From: Clostridiales bacterium
GTDB lineage: Bacteria; Bacillota; Clostridia; Lachnospirales; WRAX01
Assembly: GCA_031271375.1 (NCBI GenBank)
Contig: JAISVU010000027.1
Coordinates: 1 to 39,899, forward strand
Reading direction: 5' to 3'
Length of the DNA: 39,899 bases
This document shows positions 7,624 through 16,709 of the stretch, piece by piece. Numbering within the stretch: the stretch's first letter is position 1; the number at the start of each line of letters is the position of its first letter. Under the pieces are notes generated by a model, which was not told the origin of the DNA, did no database searches, and saw nothing but the letters and a program-made list of their open reading frames with translations. A program made the position numbers and the translations under genes.

Positions 7624-8103
7624 ATGAGCAAATTCGAAAACGCTATGAAGCTAATGCAGGAACGCTGCGGGAACGGAGACCGCGAGGAGATTATCGGCCT
7701 TGCCACTATATCGTTGACCCCAACAGCGACCGGCGCGCCTCGCCCAGCTGCGCGCATGGTCTGCGCCTATTACCAGGACGGCGCGTTTTATGTGTCCACC
7801 GACGCCACAAAGAATAAAATGCTGCAGATTGAAAAGAACAGCGAAGTCTCCGTCTGCGGCTTGAATTGGTACGCGTTCCAGGGCGTTGCGGAAAATCTGG
7901 GCTGGGTTAAGGATGAAAAGAACGCGGAGATAAGGGCGAGGTTCAAAAAGGTTTTCGACTGGTTTGATGAGGTCGGAGACGAGGACAACCCCAATTCCAT
8001 CGTGCTGCGTATCACGCTGACGGAAGGCACCGTCATCGATAACGAGCAAAAGTACGGCGAACGGATGTATGAAGTGGACTTTATTAATAAAACGGCTAAA
8101 TAA
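7624..8103 (+). CDS. Pyridoxamine 5'-phosphate oxidase-like (general stress protein 26-like) FMN-binding protein
   Basis: ATG 7624 is preceded by AAAGGAGG. A split-barrel-like pattern is present (GAFYVSTDATKNKMLQIEKNSEVSVCG...). The functional call is from resemblance only. Confidence 0.55.
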   Translation: MSKFENAMKLMQERCGNGDREEIIGLATISLTPTATGAPRPAARMVCAYYQDGAFYVSTDATKNKMLQIEKNSEVSVCGLNWYAFQGVAENLGWVKDEKNAEIRARFKKVFDWFDEVGDEDNPNSIVLRITLTEGTVIDNEQKYGERMYEVDFINKTAK

Positions 8104-8159
8104 TGGATTGAGTTTAAGAATTCTTCATCACTGCCGATACATAAGGCGAGGAGTAAACT

Positions 8160-8194
8160 CCACGGATGGAAACTTGGCCGTGGGGTTTTCTTTC
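8160..8194 (+). terminator. Candidate terminator
   Basis: CCACGG-12 nt-CCGTGG followed by GGTTTTCTTTC. Confidence 0.4.
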
Positions 8195-8214
8195 TCTTAT
8201 GAAAGGGGCGCTTG

Positions 8215-8607
8215 ATGATGAGTATTCAACCCGTAGGCAAAAACGCTCTGGCATACCAGCGCGGCAATGAAAAGGCCGAGAATAATGCGGAAAGCGCGAA
8301 AGAGAAGGCTTTGGACAACCAGATTCAGCGTCAGAAGGATTTCGCCAAAGCGCTCAAAATGCTGGACGACCATCTGGCCGAGACGGAAAGACGGCGGAAG
8401 AGGGAAGAAGCCCAACGGAAGCAGGCGGAGCATGACGAGCGGGTAAAGGAAAAGAAGATACAGGAGCTTACGGCGCTGATAGCGCATCTCCGCTCTAAGG
8501 TCGCGAACAGCAGGGGAGGGGACAGCTCCGCCCAAGCGCGGCTGGACGCCGCCGAAACGGAGCTGTTCTGGCTGACATTCAGTTTTGGAGGGGCGGCGGG
8601 GTTATGA
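8215..8607 (+). CDS. Hypothetical highly charged coiled-coil protein with a short hydrophobic C-terminal tail
   Basis: RBS GAAAGGGG. K/E/R/Q-rich helical sequence ending in LFWLTFSFGGAAGL. No family recognised. Confidence 0.5.
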   Translation: MMSIQPVGKNALAYQRGNEKAENNAESAKEKALDNQIQRQKDFAKALKMLDDHLAETERRRKREEAQRKQAEHDERVKEKKIQELTALIAHLRSKVANSRGGDSSAQARLDAAETELFWLTFSFGGAAGL

Positions 8608-8680
8608 ACCGCGATAATTAAAGTTACCGCTAAAGACGCGAAAAGCGCGAAAAAAGATTGGAATACCCATGACTTTTCGG

Positions 8681-8869
8681 TTATAATGAACCGATTTTAA
8701 AGCCTGCCGCCGCCGCTTTCACATCAGAAAAATAGATAACGACCGTCCTTACCTCGCGCCGATCTTGTTTATAAAGGCGCAGGTCATAATCCGCGAAGCG
8801 AAGTAGGCCGTCTCTATTATATACTGTTTGGAACTTAAAATGCAAAATCATTATATCATAATGAATCAC
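8681..8869 (-). pseudogene. Remnant of an Rpn-family (YhgA/PD-(D/E)XK) recombination-promoting nuclease / putative transposase
   Basis: The 62-aa ORF ILHFKFQTVYNRDGLLRFADYDLRLYKQDRREVRTVVIYF resembles the conserved h-h-H-h-E-F-Q-(S/T)...R...Y..R.Y......V.QVVIY core. It is far shorter than full-length family members (a few hundred aa). Confidence 0.35.
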
Positions 8870-8889
8870 GAGGTCAAGTGTCGTTTGAA

Positions 8890-9408
8890 TTATTTCAGCG
8901 TGAAAAGTTTAATATAGTTCTTATACCACGGATACCGCTCGCCCTGGCTCCATATTTTTAAGCGGATATAGTCGTCGAACCAGACGATAAACGGGGTGAA
9001 GAGGAACCACAGCGCAGCGAAAGGAAGGCATATCTGCCCCATGAAGTTCATCGGTATATTGCTGTAGTTCCACACATTAAGCTTCAGCACCACATTAAGC
9101 ACAAAGCCCGCGATAAACTCCACAACCACTAATGAAGCCATGCCATAAAGGGATTGGAGGATCATCTTCTTCTTCATAAACTTGGGGTTCTCATTCATCA
9201 CACCTACGAGGACGCCCCCAAGACCGCCGATGGGCATCATCGTAATATTCGCCCAGCCGCCGTTGCTGCAAATATGCCATACTCCCTCTATCAGATAGTA
9301 CGCCGCGCCGGTTATCAGCCACAGCCAAAAGGCCCTAAGCACCCAGTTTCCCTGACCGTCGGGCCTTGTGAGCGATTCCTTTAACGTTTTTACCGATATC
9401 TTAGCCAT
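8890..9408 (-). CDS. Polytopic membrane protein (possibly CmpB-like 'putative ABC-transporter type IV' family)
   Basis: 172 aa with four hydrophobic helices and the motif LNVWNYS..P.N..G.ICL.F...W. The family assignment is tentative. Confidence 0.6.
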   Translation of the reverse strand: MAKISVKTLKESLTRPDGQGNWVLRAFWLWLITGAAYYLIEGVWHICSNGGWANITMMPIGGLGGVLVGVMNENPKFMKKKMILQSLYGMASLVVVEFIAGFVLNVVLKLNVWNYSNIPMNFMGQICLPFAALWFLFTPFIVWFDDYIRLKIWSQGERYPWYKNYIKLFTLK

Positions 9409-14288: not shown

Positions 14289-15284
14289 ATGAAAGCCTTA
14301 TTCATCGGCGGCACAGGCACGATAAGCACAGAGATTTCCAAGCTGGCGGCTTCCCTCGGGGTCGAGCTGTATTTGCTTAACAGGGGCAATAGGAACACGC
14401 GATTAGACGGTGTTCCGGGCATTAACTACATACGCGGCGATATCGAAAGCAAAGAAACCCAGGCATTGCTCAAATCGCAAAAGTTCGACGTCGTTGCGGA
14501 CTTTATCGTCTTCACACGCGAGCAGATTGAGCGTGATATCGAGCTGTTTTCCGGGAACGCGGGGCAGTATATCTTTATCAGCTCGGCTTCGGCTTATCAG
14601 AAGCCGCTGTCGCATTACCTGATAACCGAAAGCACTCCCCTTGCGAATCCTTACTGGGAGTATTCGCGCAATAAGATAGCCTGCGAGGAAGCGCTTATTG
14701 AGGCATACCGCAGAAACGGCTTCCCGATGACCGTCGTAAGGCCCAGTCACACATATGACAAACATACCCTTCCCCTGGCCATTCACGGTAAGAACGGGGT
14801 GTGGTCGGTAATCAAACGCGTTATCGACGGCAAGCCGGTAATCGTCCACGGCGACGGCAGCTCACTATGGACCGTCACCCACAGCAGAGACTTCGCAAAG
14901 GCTTTCACCGGCCTTATGGGGAATATCCACGCCATAGGCGAGGCGGTGCACATCATGTCCGACGAGTCTCTTACCTGGGATCAAATCTATTACATAATCG
15001 GCGGCGCGCTGGGCGTTAAGCCCGATATTCGCCATATTTCGACGGATTGCCTCGTCAGGCATGACCCGGAGCTTCTGGGCGGCCTCACCGGGGATAAATC
15101 CAATACCGTCGTTTTCGATACTTCCAAGATAAAACGCCTGGTCCCCGGCTTTACCGCGACGATACGCTTTGATCAGGGCGCTAGGGAATCCATTTCATAT
15201 TTCCTGGAAAATCCCGCGGTGCAGGCTGCCGATCCGGAGTTTGACGCGTGGACGGATAAAGTTATACTTGACGTGTGCGGATGA
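14289..15284 (+). CDS. NAD-dependent epimerase/dehydratase family (extended SDR) protein
   Basis: N-terminal Rossmann motif FIGGTGTIS plus YSRNK (YxxxK) catalytic motif. Confidence 0.85.
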   Translation: MKALFIGGTGTISTEISKLAASLGVELYLLNRGNRNTRLDGVPGINYIRGDIESKETQALLKSQKFDVVADFIVFTREQIERDIELFSGNAGQYIFISSASAYQKPLSHYLITESTPLANPYWEYSRNKIACEEALIEAYRRNGFPMTVVRPSHTYDKHTLPLAIHGKNGVWSVIKRVIDGKPVIVHGDGSSLWTVTHSRDFAKAFTGLMGNIHAIGEAVHIMSDESLTWDQIYYIIGGALGVKPDIRHISTDCLVRHDPELLGGLTGDKSNTVVFDTSKIKRLVPGFTATIRFDQGARESISYFLENPAVQAADPEFDAWTDKVILDVCG

Positions 15285-15296
15285 TAGGGTTATAAT
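15268..15296 (+). promoter_or_regulatory. Strong sigma-A-type promoter at the end of the SDR gene, pointing into an intergenic region
   Basis: TTGACG (15268-15273), exactly 17 nt, TATAAT (15291-15296). Confidence 0.5.
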
Positions 15297-15302
15297 GGTG
15301 AT

Positions 15303-15455
15303 ATAGTAAAAGAGAGAACGCTGAATGAGCCGTTCTCCCGGTGAAACTGCGTGTCGCCGCAATAAAGGCGGCGGCTTGCCCAGTTAAATCTAGTGTTGCT
15401 TGGTCGAAATAACCGCACGAAACCTCTGTCAAAAGGGCGCGGTTATTTCTTTTTG
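15303..15455 (+). ncRNA. Candidate ~150-nt antisense sRNA (putative type I antitoxin)
   Basis: Bounded by the 15268-15296 promoter and the 15407-15455 terminator. It contains internal hairpins (GAGAACG..CGTTCTC at 15314-15338; CGCCGC..GCGGCG about 15353-15373) and no plausible ORF. It is convergent with, and overlaps, the 3' end of the small peptide gene. The ends are predicted only. Confidence 0.35.
15407..15455. terminator. Terminator hairpin shared by convergent transcripts (better T-tract on + strand)
   Basis: AAATAACCGC...GCGGTTATTT 10-bp stem followed by CTTTTTG on the + strand. It overlaps the stop codon of the minus-strand peptide gene. Confidence 0.55.
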
Positions 15456-15547
15456 CTGTTTCGGCCGATCATGTACAGCAGCGTCCCAAGCAGAATCGTA
15501 AACGATAACGCCGAAAACACCGCGTCCAGTATTTCATATGCCGTCAT
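15443..15547 (-). CDS. 34-aa hydrophobic peptide, holin-like type I toxin candidate (below the ORF-track length cutoff)
   Basis: My translation is MTAYEILDAVFSALSFTILLGTLLYMIGRNSKKK*. RBS AAGGGGTGA lies 4 nt upstream of the ATG. It has a single TM helix and a Lys-rich tail, as in Hol-Tox/type I toxins of Bacillota. Confidence 0.5.
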   Translation of the reverse strand: MTAYEILDAVFSALSFTILLGTLLYMIGRNSKKK

Positions 15548-15610
15548 ACAATCACCCCTTTTCGGGGGCTAAAAACCTAACCGTCCCTTATGCGCTAGAC
15601 ACGTACAGCT

Positions 15611-15639
15611 ATATTACACCATTCTTGTTAATATGTCAA
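15611..15639 (-). promoter_or_regulatory. Promoter for the small peptide gene
   Basis: On the minus strand: TTGACA (15639-15634), 17 nt, TAATAT (15616-15611). The -35 overlaps the asd stop codon. Confidence 0.5.
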
Positions 15640-16709
15640 ATTATTCCTTCCTTCACCAGCAGCTCCGCCAAGAGAATAGCGCCGCCGGCCGCGCCCCTCA
15701 GCGTATTATGGAACAGGCAGACGAACTTATAATCAAACACCGTATCGGGCCTAAGCCTGCCGACGGAGACGGCCATGCCGCCTTCCAGCCCTCTGTCGGG
15801 CCGGGTTTGGGGCTGGTTGTCCTCGTCAAAGTAATGCAAAAATTGTTTTGGGGCTGACGGAAGGCCCAGTATCTGAGGCTTCCCGGCAAATGAGTTCCAC
15901 CTGTCAATTATCTCATCCTTAGGAGGTTTGTGCGCAAATGAACAGAAAACCGCCGCAAGATGGCCATCGCTGACCGGCACCCGTATACACTGCGTTGTTA
16001 TCACGGGCTTTTCCGCCGGGACGACGCCGCCGTTTATCACTGAGCCCCAGACCTTCAGCGGCTCCCGCTCAGACTTTTCCTCTTCGCCCGGTATAAACGG
16101 AATCACATTGTCCCGCATCTCCGGCCAGGTTTCCAAATTCTTGCCCGCGCCGGAGACCGCCTGGTATGTGCAGGCCAGAACCCGCTCAAGCCCATACTCC
16201 CGCAACGGATGAAGGGCCGGTACATAGCTCTGGATGGAGCAGTTGGATTTTACCGCGATAAAGCCTCGGGATGTGCCAAGCCTGCGCCGCTGGGTTTCGA
16301 TAACGGCTAGATGCCCGGGATTAAGCTCGGGGATTATCATCGGCACGTCAGCCGCGGCGCGGTGGGCGCTGTTGTTGGATACGACGGGGCACTCGCGCCT
16401 TGCATAGGCCTCTTCAAGCCGGAAAATCTCTTCCTTTTTCATATCCACGGCAGAGAAGACAAAGTCCGCCGTATCCGCAACCTTCTCCACGTCGGACGCA
16501 TCCTGCACAATGATGTTCTTAACGCCCTCGGGTACTGGCTTCTCCATTGCCCAGCGCCCCGCGACGGCTTCCTGGTATGTCTTCCCCGCCGATCTGGGGC
16601 TTGCGGCTATCGCTGTCACCGTAAACCACGGATGCCCCTCAAGGCACGATATAAAACGTTGGCCTACCATACCGGTGCCGCCCAGGACGCCTACATTAAA
16701 TTTCGTCAT
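15636..16709 (-). CDS. asd: Aspartate-semialdehyde dehydrogenase
   Basis: GGTGMVGQRF Rossmann motif, active-site SNCSIQ, length 357 aa. Confidence 0.9.
   Translation of the reverse strand: MTKFNVGVLGGTGMVGQRFISCLEGHPWFTVTAIAASPRSAGKTYQEAVAGRWAMEKPVPEGVKNIIVQDASDVEKVADTADFVFSAVDMKKEEIFRLEEAYARRECPVVSNNSAHRAAADVPMIIPELNPGHLAVIETQRRRLGTSRGFIAVKSNCSIQSYVPALHPLREYGLERVLACTYQAVSGAGKNLETWPEMRDNVIPFIPGEEEKSEREPLKVWGSVINGGVVPAEKPVITTQCIRVPVSDGHLAAVFCSFAHKPPKDEIIDRWNSFAGKPQILGLPSAPKQFLHYFDEDNQPQTRPDRGLEGGMAVSVGRLRPDTVFDYKFVCLFHNTLRGAAGGAILLAELLVKEGII

Follow-up and report, generated by a model that had tools for sequence, protein, structure and literature searches.

The gap between two convergent housekeeping genes, at positions 15268-15639 of the window (the whole stretch of DNA that was analysed, 39,899 nt), very probably holds a complete type I toxin-antitoxin cassette, of the kind represented by TxpA/BsrG/BsrE (Pfam Hol_Tox). 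In silico, the cassette combines a gene for a small hydrophobic protein, with its own promoter and ribosome-binding site, and a convergent, overlapping gene for an antisense RNA. The type I reading, first proposed from the letters of this DNA alone, is now backed by homologous cassettes of the same layout, by paralogous peptides that pass the Pfam Hol_Tox model and by other copies that approach the Rfam BsrG model. The cassette fills the 370-base gap between the epimerase gene (plus strand) and asd (minus strand), and with threonine synthase as a further neighbour its setting is chromosomal, with no prophage around it and no direct repeats flanking it. The elements of the cassette are as follows.

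15268..15296, plus strand: promoter of the candidate antitoxin sRNA, TTGACG-17-TATAAT
15303..15455, plus strand: predicted antitoxin sRNA of ~153 nt, with hairpins at 15314-15337, 15353-15375 and 15406-15449, then a U-tract
15303..15339, minus strand: second hairpin T2, GGGAGAACG...CGUUCUCUC (15339..15312), then the U-tract UUUUACUAU
15350..15379, minus strand: 3' strand of the predicted long-range helix, in the toxin 3' UTR
15406..15449, both strands: bidirectional hairpin T1, covering the stop codon, with arms GAAAUAACCGCGC / GUGCGGUUAUUUC
15443..15547, minus strand: candidate toxin ORF of 34 aa, MTAYEILDAVFSALSFTILLGTLLYMIGRNSKKK, with stop codon TAA at 15445..15443
15548..15604, minus strand: predicted 5' UTR of 57 nt, with the motif GCAUAAGGGACGGUUAGG
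15552..15568, minus strand: predicted SD-sequestering hairpin, with anti-SD CCCC(C) at 15568..15564, loop GAAAA and SD GGGGUGA at 15558..15552
15603..15568, minus strand: 5' strand of the predicted long-range helix (P1-like), within the toxin 5' UTR
15611..15639, minus strand: toxin promoter, TTGACA (15639..15634), 17-nt spacer, TAATAT (15616..15611)

Genes, promoters and predicted folds of the cassette

The sequence-only reading had placed a 34-codon ORF on the minus strand between the SDR gene and asd and described its product as one helix with a Lys tail. The ORF is present at 15547..15443, and its translation begins with the motif M-T-x-Y-E-I-L, continues as a single hydrophobic helix and ends in KKK. 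Exact-sequence look-ups of the 34-aa peptide and of the asd product returned no record, a phmmer search of the peptide against 1.84 billion representative proteins gave no match at E <= 0.001, and none of the other 19 genomes of the family analysed below has an orthologue of the window's asd at E <= 1e-40. The region was traced to one DNA run and to no RNA run. A Logan contig from that DNA run is identical over 14900-16000; this agreement is not independent support, since the run is probably the source sample.

Both promoters of that reading were recovered by a promoter scan. The minus-strand TTGACA-17-TAATAT site (15639..15611) matches the consensus at 10 of 12 positions, has an aligned homologous promoter in G001, a genome of another genus, and overlaps the asd stop codon with its -35 box; the transcript is predicted to start at ~15604. 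The plus-strand TTGACG-17-TATAAT site (15268..15296) matches at 11 of 12 positions, and its -35 box sits within the last codons of the epimerase gene. Four promoter-like sites were found in 1.2 kb, versus 1.0 +/- 0.8 in shuffled sequences.

The leader of the predicted mRNA carries the motif AAGGG(A/C)GGTTAGG, which is kept in G001 and in a 20-locus alignment. The SD sequence GGGGUGA lies 4 nt upstream of the ATG, and its GGGG (15558..15555) is paired in the minimum free energy (MFE) folds of both the short and the full-length RNA, whether or not the 3' UTR is masked. The proposal that a C-run occludes the ribosome-binding site is thus borne out in these folds, with a correction to its position: the run pairs from 15568..15564, one base off the 15563-15567 given before. 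An upstream C/U-rich arm pairs with the SD purine run as the best local hairpin in ~20 of 26 loci of the cassette family described below, with differing sequences.

A second feature of the predicted mRNA is a long-range helix between its two ends. In the full-length fold, nt 2-37 pair with nt 226-255, and a terminator hairpin follows at nt 266-293. The plus-strand side of the 3' strand of this helix (15350..15379) comprises the middle hairpin of the sRNA (15353-15375) and the motif AAAGGCGGCGGCUUGCC. RNAduplex gave -38.7 kcal/mol for the duplex of the 5' UTR with the 3' UTR in the window (z -2.92, 2/200 shuffles), and the z-scores lie between -2.9 and -7.8 in 24 of the 26 loci; the helix of the window is the weakest of the set, its pairing being interrupted by bulges. 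Seven loci were folded at full length, and in these a segment of 20-30 nt from the 5' UTR, beginning at nt 1-3, is paired to the 3' UTR immediately ahead of the terminator. Since MAFFT misaligned the hairpins (in 11 sRNAs, and in the stop-codon hairpins, where CCGC and CCCG variants fell out of register), covariation was counted in Python on anchored gapless blocks. By this count, in which the anchors maximise pairing and so favour the in-register value, 71.8% of the homologous-position cells are paired in register versus 35-47% when slid, and 94 cells show double changes in register versus 27-47 in the slid controls. The predicted folds thus contain the three parts of a bsrG/SR4-type architecture, namely a P1-like helix, a 4-bp SD stem and a complementary antitoxin.

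On the opposite strand, the fold of 15300-15460 shows two hairpins followed by a terminator hairpin (z -3.99; none of 200 shuffles as good), in agreement with the earlier description of two hairpins ending at a terminator over the peptide stop codon. The terminator hairpin has its arms at 15406-15416 and 15439-15449, spans the stop codon and is followed by TTATTTCTTTTT. This hairpin, T1, is followed on the plus strand by the U-tract UUAUUUCUUUUU, the complement of the Lys codons, and on the minus strand by a poor U-tract; from the plus-strand U-tract, T1 is assigned as the terminator of the sRNA. Its arms are conserved in the 26 loci with compensatory changes (TAACC/GGTTA, TAGCC/GGCTA, TAGAC/GTCTA). 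The predicted sRNA is antisense to the last Lys codons and the stop codon of the toxin gene and to its entire 3' UTR. The same ~150 nt had been described as free of ORFs. Four ORFs of 20-59 aa in fact overlap this stretch, and the non-coding reading stands in that the closest homologous locus, in G001, encodes nothing similar there; a conserved ORF on the sRNA strand was therefore dropped as a candidate. The sRNA stretch has no match in Rfam, and the closest DNA match to a relative, G001 (73% over 94 nt, E 1e-5), falls within it.

The second hairpin, T2, was absent from the sequence-only reading, and its complement forms the 5' hairpin of the sRNA. At the T2 position, roughly half of the loci carry a G/A-rich hairpin with a U-tract, and compensatory changes are seen among them. 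T2 is the probable terminator of the toxin mRNA, which by this model would be ~300 nt long (15604 to ~15303). The 3'-overlapping convergent geometry of txpA/RatA and bsrG/SR4, claimed for this locus before, is upheld; as the toxin mRNA most likely ends at T2, the overlap probably extends beyond a shared terminator to the whole sRNA (~150 nt).

Recurrence of the cassette and family membership of its peptide

The earlier reading had named conservation as a unit in related genomes as a point on which it could fail. The same layout is found elsewhere both in the genome of the window and in its relatives. We analysed 26 loci, 10 from this termite-gut genome (the window's and nine others) and 16 from nine other genomes of a 20-genome family, which corresponds to the NCBI label Defluviitaleaceae. 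The unit at the ~10 loci of the genome itself consists of a promoter, a structured leader, a peptide of 25-38 aa with a Lys/Arg tail, a stop-codon hairpin and a convergent promoter, and its order, spacing and reading frame are constant at all 26 loci, where the flanking genes are unrelated. In 25 loci the distance from the stop codon to a convergent promoter-like site beyond it is 72-161 nt; in the 26th the scorer picked a site at 193 nt. Upstream of the ORF, a promoter-like site is present in 24 of the 26 loci, and a site equivalent to that of the window in 23 of the 24 other loci for which upstream DNA was scanned. Several copies of the cassette lie at contig ends, and some form tandem arrays.

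G001 provides the closest counterpart. It carries the promoter, the leader, a 34-aa ORF, the stop-codon hairpin and the convergent promoter, with 75% mean column identity to the cassette of the window (MAFFT, two sequences), and its peptide has 11 of 22 residues in common with that of the window (E 4e-7). The cassette is also present in two genomes of genus g6. Within the genome of the window, four synonymous codon changes and one Ile/Val change separate the tandem paralogues C109 and C293, a substitution pattern that is one of coding constraint as judged from these sequences. Contig C297 carries a decayed copy, in which the leader and the N-terminus are deleted and the sRNA gene is intact. 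A pattern scan across contigs of many genomes yielded 13 true cassettes among the 120 matches listed; the other 107 have no family-like peptide at the right upstream distance and appear chance-like, many of them in G+C-rich genomes. One match in G014 (L003) was rejected as a cassette, being a chance 27-nt match within a MiaB-like gene.

The likeness of the peptide to Hol-Tox proteins was a part of the earlier reading that needed qualification. The window peptide itself has no match to Pfam Hol_Tox (PF16935) at E <= 10 and thus falls short of the 23.3-bit cut-off. Meanwhile, four matches from the same genome pass this cut-off (30.2, 27.2, 25.3 and 24.9 bits), two of which may be parts of a single locus split between C209 and the contig-end fragment C407, and the C117 and C143 peptides lie just under it (22.5 and 22.2 bits). 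Hol_Tox matches occur in 11 of the 20 family genomes, in 9 of them above the cut-off; as for control genomes, the cut-off was passed in two, and three were named as matching, including Bacillus subtilis and Lactococcus lactis. We built an HMM of the long subfamily from eight peptides, leaving out that of the window; three of the eight pass Pfam (G019_C36, 33.7 bits; G014_C8, 32.4 bits; C209, 30.2 bits). This profile aligns the window peptide over its full length (residues 1-34 on 1-35; 21.4 bits, E 3.7e-4) and ranks it as the best non-training match among 38,390 small ORFs (20-60 aa) of its own genome, whereas a mixed whole-family HMM gave only E = 3. The window peptide is therefore linked to Hol_Tox through an intermediate profile, and because the Pfam model misses it, its family membership is drawn from the local subfamily profile together with the homology of the cassettes at the DNA level.

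At the RNA level, Rfam gave no match, whether all of the window was scanned at gathering thresholds, the locus at E <= 10 or 326 nt alone. For Rfam BsrG (RF01412), which has a gathering score of 55 bits, the window gave no match at E <= 10, and four paralogues aligned over the full length of the model (1-259) at sub-threshold scores (C109, 31.7; C100, 27.1; C117, 21.4; C293, 19.6 bits). The copy in the window is the most divergent one and is missed by both public models. NCBIfam and PHROGs scans of four peptides returned only noise. A prophage or holin origin is unsupported, as a tblastn search of the C117 peptide against 50,697 phage records found no match.

Known type I systems and a proposed mode of control

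The window cassette is real and of a familiar kind, built like bsrG/SR4. BsrG has the N-terminal motif M-T-x-Y-E-x-L, like that of the window peptide. The bsrG/SR4 system of the B. subtilis SPbeta prophage (Jahn & Brantl 2013, PMC3834814) shares with the window a small one-helix peptide with a Lys tail. [quoted passage not shown] The window is alike in each of these respects in its predicted RNAs, which have the SD in a 4-bp G-C stem, a P1-type helix before the terminator, a stop codon enclosed by a hairpin, a convergent antitoxin whose complementarity takes in this hairpin, the 3' half of the P1-type helix and the terminator, and an mRNA of ~300 nt. The differences are that SR4 is 180-183 nt long whereas the window sRNA is predicted at ~153 nt and does not have the non-complementary 5' stem-loop, and that bsrG resides in a Bacillus prophage whereas the window cassette is chromosomal, lies between housekeeping genes of an uncultured termite-gut member of the Clostridia and belongs to a family of ~10 loci.

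Other systems of the group are similar in size and layout. The B. subtilis systems have toxins of 29-59 aa, mRNAs of 255-294 nt and antitoxins of 163-222 nt, and the sizes in the window fit (PMC6562991). In bsrE/SR5 and bsrH/as-bsrH, toxins of 29-30 aa are encoded by mRNAs of 255-285 nt with 3'-overlapping antitoxins and a sequestered RBS (PMC6562991); the short peptides of our family (25-29 aa, with a KK or K-x-K end) resemble these in size, unlike the window peptide, which belongs to a longer subfamily of 34-35 aa. In txpA/RatA of the B. subtilis skin element, RNase III cleavage of the duplex is essential and RatA has no effect on mRNA conformation; TxpA has 59 aa versus 34 aa in the window, and the cited account of txpA describes no P1-like 5'-3' helix such as the one predicted here. 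EF3263 of Enterococcus faecalis and its sRNA are grouped with txpA/RatA in the TxpA family (PMC2887945). According to reviews, the txpA/bsrG group occurs only in a few species of Bacillus and Paenibacillus, and the bsrE/bsrH group is described both as widespread in Bacillota and as limited to Bacilli (PMC6562991); TxpA-like sequences in Clostridiales had already been noted (Fozo et al. 2010, PMC2887945).

The par system of the E. faecalis plasmid pAD1 (fst RNA I / RNA II) has convergent genes, a shared bidirectional terminator and a toxin of ~33 aa in common with the window, and its toxin, Fst, belongs to another family. Pairing in par runs through direct repeats in the DNA. In the window, unlike par, the middle part of the sRNA and the toxin leader agree in sense, as copies of an inverted repeat in the DNA, and are not complementary. 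The sRNA thus cannot pair with the leader and would instead compete with it for the 3' UTR; for this reason we dropped a par/Fst-type mechanism, in which the sRNA would pair with the toxin leader. The type I toxins of Clostridioides difficile are ~50 aa long. These modules (CD2517.1/RCd8 and others) are likewise type I modules of Clostridia with small hydrophobic toxins, and in review they show no sequence homology to the earlier-studied B. subtilis and S. aureus systems (PMC6563280, PMC5961336).

In the control that we propose, the minus strand would give an mRNA of ~300 nt encoding the 34-aa single-helix membrane peptide with its Lys tail, and the plus strand a non-coding sRNA of ~153 nt that is a perfect complement of the stop-codon hairpin, the 3' UTR and the terminator. 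The SD would be locked by the 4-bp G-C stem, and the molecule would be closed, as by helix P1 in bsrG, through pairing of the 5' end of the mRNA with the part of its 3' UTR directly ahead of the terminator. By analogy with bsrG/SR4 and txpA/RatA, sRNA binding would start at the loops of the terminator or the stop-codon hairpin and spread over the 3' UTR, displacing the 5' strand of the long helix; the long duplex would become a substrate for RNase III, so that translation stays blocked and the mRNA is destroyed. Were the sRNA lost, the peptide would be made and could damage the membrane or envelope. We infer toxicity of the window peptide from its relatives only, family members toxic with a 3' antisense sRNA being EF3263 (PMC2887945) and BsrG (PMC8309996).

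Rival readings and wider significance

That a chance small ORF lies in a structured, terminator-rich spacer with accidental promoter-like hexamers is hardly credible. Both hairpins could terminate the flanking epimerase and asd genes on their respective strands, and small ORFs abound in this genome, as the count given above shows. Nevertheless, this reading is already contradicted by the comparative data: the whole unit recurs in one order, spacing and frame between unrelated flanks, the paralogues differ by coding-type substitutions, the helices covary, and promoter-like sites occur at four times the expected frequency. A more substantial doubt concerns function. The peptide might be a small membrane protein without toxicity that, for instance, modulates a membrane complex; a cis-antisense RNA would tune its synthesis, and the pair would serve regulation and not addiction or defence. 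Some family members have little or no toxicity: TxpA is non-toxic in E. coli (PMC2887945), and loss of SR5 causes no lysis and bsrE is toxic only on overexpression (PMC6562991). The neighbours here are housekeeping genes and not a prophage, and the peptide of a paralogue had no phage match. We nonetheless consider this very unlikely, since a number of ~10 copies in a genome, their occurrence in tandem arrays and the presence of a decayed copy fit selfish toxin-antitoxin cassettes better, and toxin genes typically have a tight double lock on translation of this sort, an SD stem plus an antisense RNA (PMC6562991).

A decaying or silenced copy, which has inherited the architecture, has lost the toxic peptide or its expression and is kept mainly as a terminator pair between convergent genes, is improbable, albeit less so than a non-toxic regulator. 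Unlike its paralogues, the window copy has no Pfam or Rfam match, and its divergence, its weakest long-range helix and its -10 box TAATAT, which is weaker than that of most loci, together with the missing protein-database match, indicate that it could be drifting toward loss of function. Its N-terminus is also atypical: the consensus motif MTAYEIL leads into AVFSAL, and it is to AVFSAL that the G001 peptide aligns with its N-terminus. In addition, a clearly decayed relative exists on contig C297. Against this stand the intact ORF, the well-spaced SD, the intact anti-SD stem, promoters with 10 and 11 of 12 consensus matches, both hairpins and the full-length coverage of the peptide by the long-subfamily profile. 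We accordingly retain the reading of a complete type I cassette.

A bolder extension, speculative and in our view unlikely, holds that these cassettes are a mobile, self-spreading family in termite-gut Defluviitaleaceae and also RNA switches between two folds, beyond static addiction modules. If so, the cassette would land at gene 3' ends, duplicate ~44 nt of the target gene end and supply terminators for both neighbours. The switch would involve four mutually complementary elements, namely GGGCGGUUA in the leader, UAACCGCC in the 3' UTR and both arms of the hairpin over the stop codon, and the sRNA would decide between the folds, which exceeds what is described for bsrG/SR4.

On the preferred reading of a bsrG/SR4-like cassette, the understanding of the type I mechanism is unchanged and the genome gains one unannotated gene pair. 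Such genes escape gene callers, and assemblies break at these repeats. The alignment of 26 loci could serve as a seed for new Rfam models of the toxin mRNA and of the sRNA, currently undetected by Rfam. Cassettes of the bsrG/SR4 type are abundant in this uncultured termite-gut lineage of Clostridia, with ~10 loci per genome, and their predicted folds keep an mRNA architecture of P1 helix, SD stem and stop-codon hairpin.

The cassette between the epimerase gene and asd

[quoted passage not shown] The 34-aa ORF that it had placed between the two genes is present on the minus strand, and a consensus scan, which found four promoter-like sites in 1.2 kb versus 1.0 ± 0.8 in shuffles, recovered both convergent promoters exactly where it had put them.

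Features of the cassette in the window
15639..15611, minus: toxin promoter, TTGACA-17-TAATAT (consensus scan)
15558..15552, minus: Shine-Dalgarno (SD) sequence, GGGGUGA
15547..15443, minus: toxin ORF, 105 nt, product MTAYEILDAVFSALSFTILLGTLLYMIGRNSKKK
15406-15416 and 15439-15449, plus: arms of the terminator hairpin T1, then UUAUUUCUUUUU (fold)
15339..15312, minus (toxin strand): second hairpin T2, then UUUUACUAU; missed by the sequence-only reading
15268..15296, plus: promoter of the predicted antitoxin sRNA, TTGACG-17-TATAAT (consensus scan)

The proposed occlusion of the ribosome-binding site by a C-run was supported by predicted pairing with the GGGG of the SD in all folds computed, with the run one base away from where it had been given (15568..15564, minus). 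The fold of plus-strand 15300-15460 (z-score −3.99) contains the two hairpins and the terminator over the peptide stop codon that had been described. The claim that this strand lacks an ORF held only partly: four ORFs of 20-59 aa overlap it, while the equivalent stretch of G001, the related genome with the closest homologous locus, encodes no similar protein. The predicted sRNA would span 15303-15455 (~153 nt) and be complementary to T1, the whole 3’ UTR and T2. In the window and in all 26 loci compared (ten in its own genome, 16 in nine others of its 20-genome family, labeled Defluviitaleaceae), the T1 stem includes the stop codon and the Lys/Arg tail codons (AAAAAGAAATAA; window 15443-15456) are the sRNA terminator U-tract on the opposite strand; thus, the C-terminal tail and the antitoxin terminator are jointly constrained. 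TAA-to-TAG stop changes among the 26 loci are offset by T-to-C in the opposite hairpin arm.

Recurrence of the cassette and its peptide family

Conservation as a unit in related genomes, on which the sequence-only reading had made its proposal depend, was found in G001, in a third genus and across the 26 loci. A DNA search of the related genomes located the homologous cassette of G001, which belongs to another genus, in a different neighborhood, with a toxin promoter TTGACA-17-TATAAT, a convergent promoter TTGACA-17-TATGAT, a leader carrying the window's AAGGGACGGTT motif, a 34-aa ORF MSVFEALMFAIAFATLIYCIARDKNKKNKRRKRK (11/22 residues shared with the window peptide) and the same stop-codon hairpin. 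Two genomes of the third genus contain the cassette, and a motif scan together with Pfam and Rfam searches gave nine further loci in the window's own genome (contigs C117, C89, C143, C209, C109, C293, C100 and the decayed C297; C407 may be the other half of C209). Pfam Hol_Tox (PF16935, cut-off 23.3 bits) has matches in 11 of the 20 family genomes, nine over the cut-off, and many of these genomes hold multiple copies, some in tandem. A convergent promoter-like site lies 72-161 nt beyond the stop codon in 25 of the 26 loci (in the 26th the promoter scorer chose a site at 193 nt), and another lies upstream of the ORF in 24, the upstream DNA of the other two being outside the available sequence. 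The consensus of a 20-locus alignment reads TGnTATAAT / AAGTGCAnAAGGGCGGTTAGGCTTG / anti-SD...GGGGGTGAG / ATG-peptide, continuing as AAAAAAATAA-CCGCCC...GGTTATTT / CAAGCCTAACCGCCTTTAAAGCGG / GAGAGAGTG...CACTCTCTC-TTTTAT / ATTATA...TCAAG. Scanning one genome per species for the pattern added at least 13 cassettes, one record being genome G013 of the window's own family, which places the lineage in Bacillota; Clostridia; Lachnospirales; Defluviitaleaceae by NCBI taxonomy. At least nine are from termite-gut MAGs labeled Defluviitaleaceae or Eubacteriales, and the sole run containing the window is a termite-gut metagenome. None of the other 19 family genomes has an orthologue, at E ≤ 1e-40, of the neighboring aspartate-semialdehyde dehydrogenase gene asd (window 15636-16709); either these use another asd type or the region here was horizontally acquired.

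In the comparison with the Hol-Tox model, the window's own peptide has no Pfam match, though paralogues pass: four matches in the same genome score 24.9-30.2 bits, and C117 and C143 fall slightly under the cut-off (22.5 and 22.2 bits). Control genomes exceeded the cut-off in two cases, with Bacillus subtilis and Lactococcus lactis among three named as matching. A search of 1.84 billion representative proteins with the window peptide found nothing at E ≤ 0.001, and its score against a profile built from all local family members was E = 3. Against a profile of eight 'long' relatives (29-35 aa), it aligned over its full length (21.4 bits, E 3.7e-4), making it the top non-training match among the genome's 38,390 small ORFs. 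We therefore assign the peptide, an outlier, to the family as a divergent member through these intermediates rather than by its Pfam result. Holin-like toxins have been placed in the TxpA family, with members noted in Clostridiales, and the 3’ UTR of EF3263, which was shown to be toxic, is matched by an antisense sRNA of ~110 nt (Fozo et al. 2010, PMC2887945). The N-terminal motif is doubled in the window peptide (MTAYEIL-D-AVFSAL; 15526-15547) and in that of a Defluviitaleaceae MAG (L062, MTVYEALMIFYEAL), as if short stretches within the 5’ end of the ORF had been duplicated.

Two findings rule out a chance ORF among terminators: the unit recurs in unrelated contexts, and the tandem paralogues C109 and C293 show coding-type substitution, with four codons changed synonymously and a single Ile/Val replacement. 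The window's cassette is the most divergent of all copies and its genome also holds a truncated one (C297), as would fit a decaying copy, yet all its functional elements are intact and we consider decay unlikely. That the locus encodes a non-toxic membrane peptide under antisense regulation appears more improbable still.

Predicted RNA architecture and likeness to bsrG/SR4

On the toxin strand the U-tract of T1 is poor. T2 lies ~100 nt beyond it, adjoining the sRNA start, and in the window, as in about half of the 26 loci, it leads into UUUUAC or UUUUAU; a toxin mRNA extending from ~15604 to ~15303 (~300 nt) is therefore probable. Full-length folds of seven loci, the window included, pair 20-30 nt at the 5’ end of the mRNA with the 3’ UTR immediately ahead of T2 and leave the SD in its local stem. 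This 5’ UTR:3’ UTR duplex beats shuffles in 24 of the 26 loci, with z-scores between −2.9 and −7.8; that of the window is the weakest (z −2.92, reached by 2/200 shuffles). The long helix occupies homologous positions with differing sequences: 71.8% of cells are paired in register versus 35-47% when slid, and 94 cells show double changes versus 27-47 in slid controls. T1 and T2 also carry compensatory changes, e.g. TAACC/GGTTA versus TAGCC/GGCTA, which alters the stop codon at its third position. Both the T1 5’ arm UAACCGCCC and the 3’ UTR element UAACCGCC are complementary to the leader element GGGCGGUUA (window 15568-15603 and 15406-15449; family consensus). In the Rfam BsrG consensus, the partner of the leader is the sequence after the stop codon. 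The RNA could thus adopt either of two folds; for the window, pairing with the 3’ UTR is favored (−38.7 versus −22.4 kcal/mol).

The predicted architecture of these toxin mRNAs is that probed for the bsrG mRNA, in which nt 1-35 pair with nt 232-262 (P1) immediately before the terminator, the SD sits in a 4-bp stem and the stop codon lies in SL3 (PMC3834814); the bsrG/SR4 geometry that had been proposed is supported. [quoted passage not shown] By analogy, the sRNA would make contact via the T1 loops and then zip along the toxin 3’ UTR, pushing off the 5’ strand of P1; the resulting long duplex would be an RNase III substrate, and the SD stem would keep translation blocked. For txpA, cleavage by RNase III is essential, whereas for bsrG it has an auxiliary role (PMC6562991). 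Consistent with this architecture, four paralogous mRNAs from the same genome aligned to the Rfam BsrG model (RF01412) across its full 259 positions (31.7 to 19.6 bits, threshold 55); the window's copy gave no alignment. Systems of this kind are well known, and the toxin family was already reported from Clostridiales in 2010; what is particular to this case is modest, namely a new host lineage, a family of ~10 loci, a divergent 34-aa subfamily missed by public models, and an sRNA undetected by Rfam.

Other copies in the genome

Cassettes lie at the ends of C293, C109 and C209 and at the start of C407. The end of C293 runs into the C109 promoter and leader, which indicates tandem copies with the assembly broken at repeats, and the true copy number may exceed our count. 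The C143 cassette (8700-9230; locus L009 1701-2231) lies directly 3’ of a 234-aa ORF (8070-8774, +), the last ~44 nt of which, ATGCTGGCGGAGTCGG(T/C)TATCGC(G/A)AAGTTCTTCCTGTTTAAT, recur across the cassette, 464 nt away; this repeat resembles a target-site duplication, or a gene end rescued when the cassette inserted. In C297 (~460-700), the toxin promoter is fused to mid-ORF with deletion of the leader, SD and N-terminus, while the stop-codon hairpin, 3’ UTR element, second terminator and convergent sRNA promoter are intact, so that this copy would be an orphan antitoxin.
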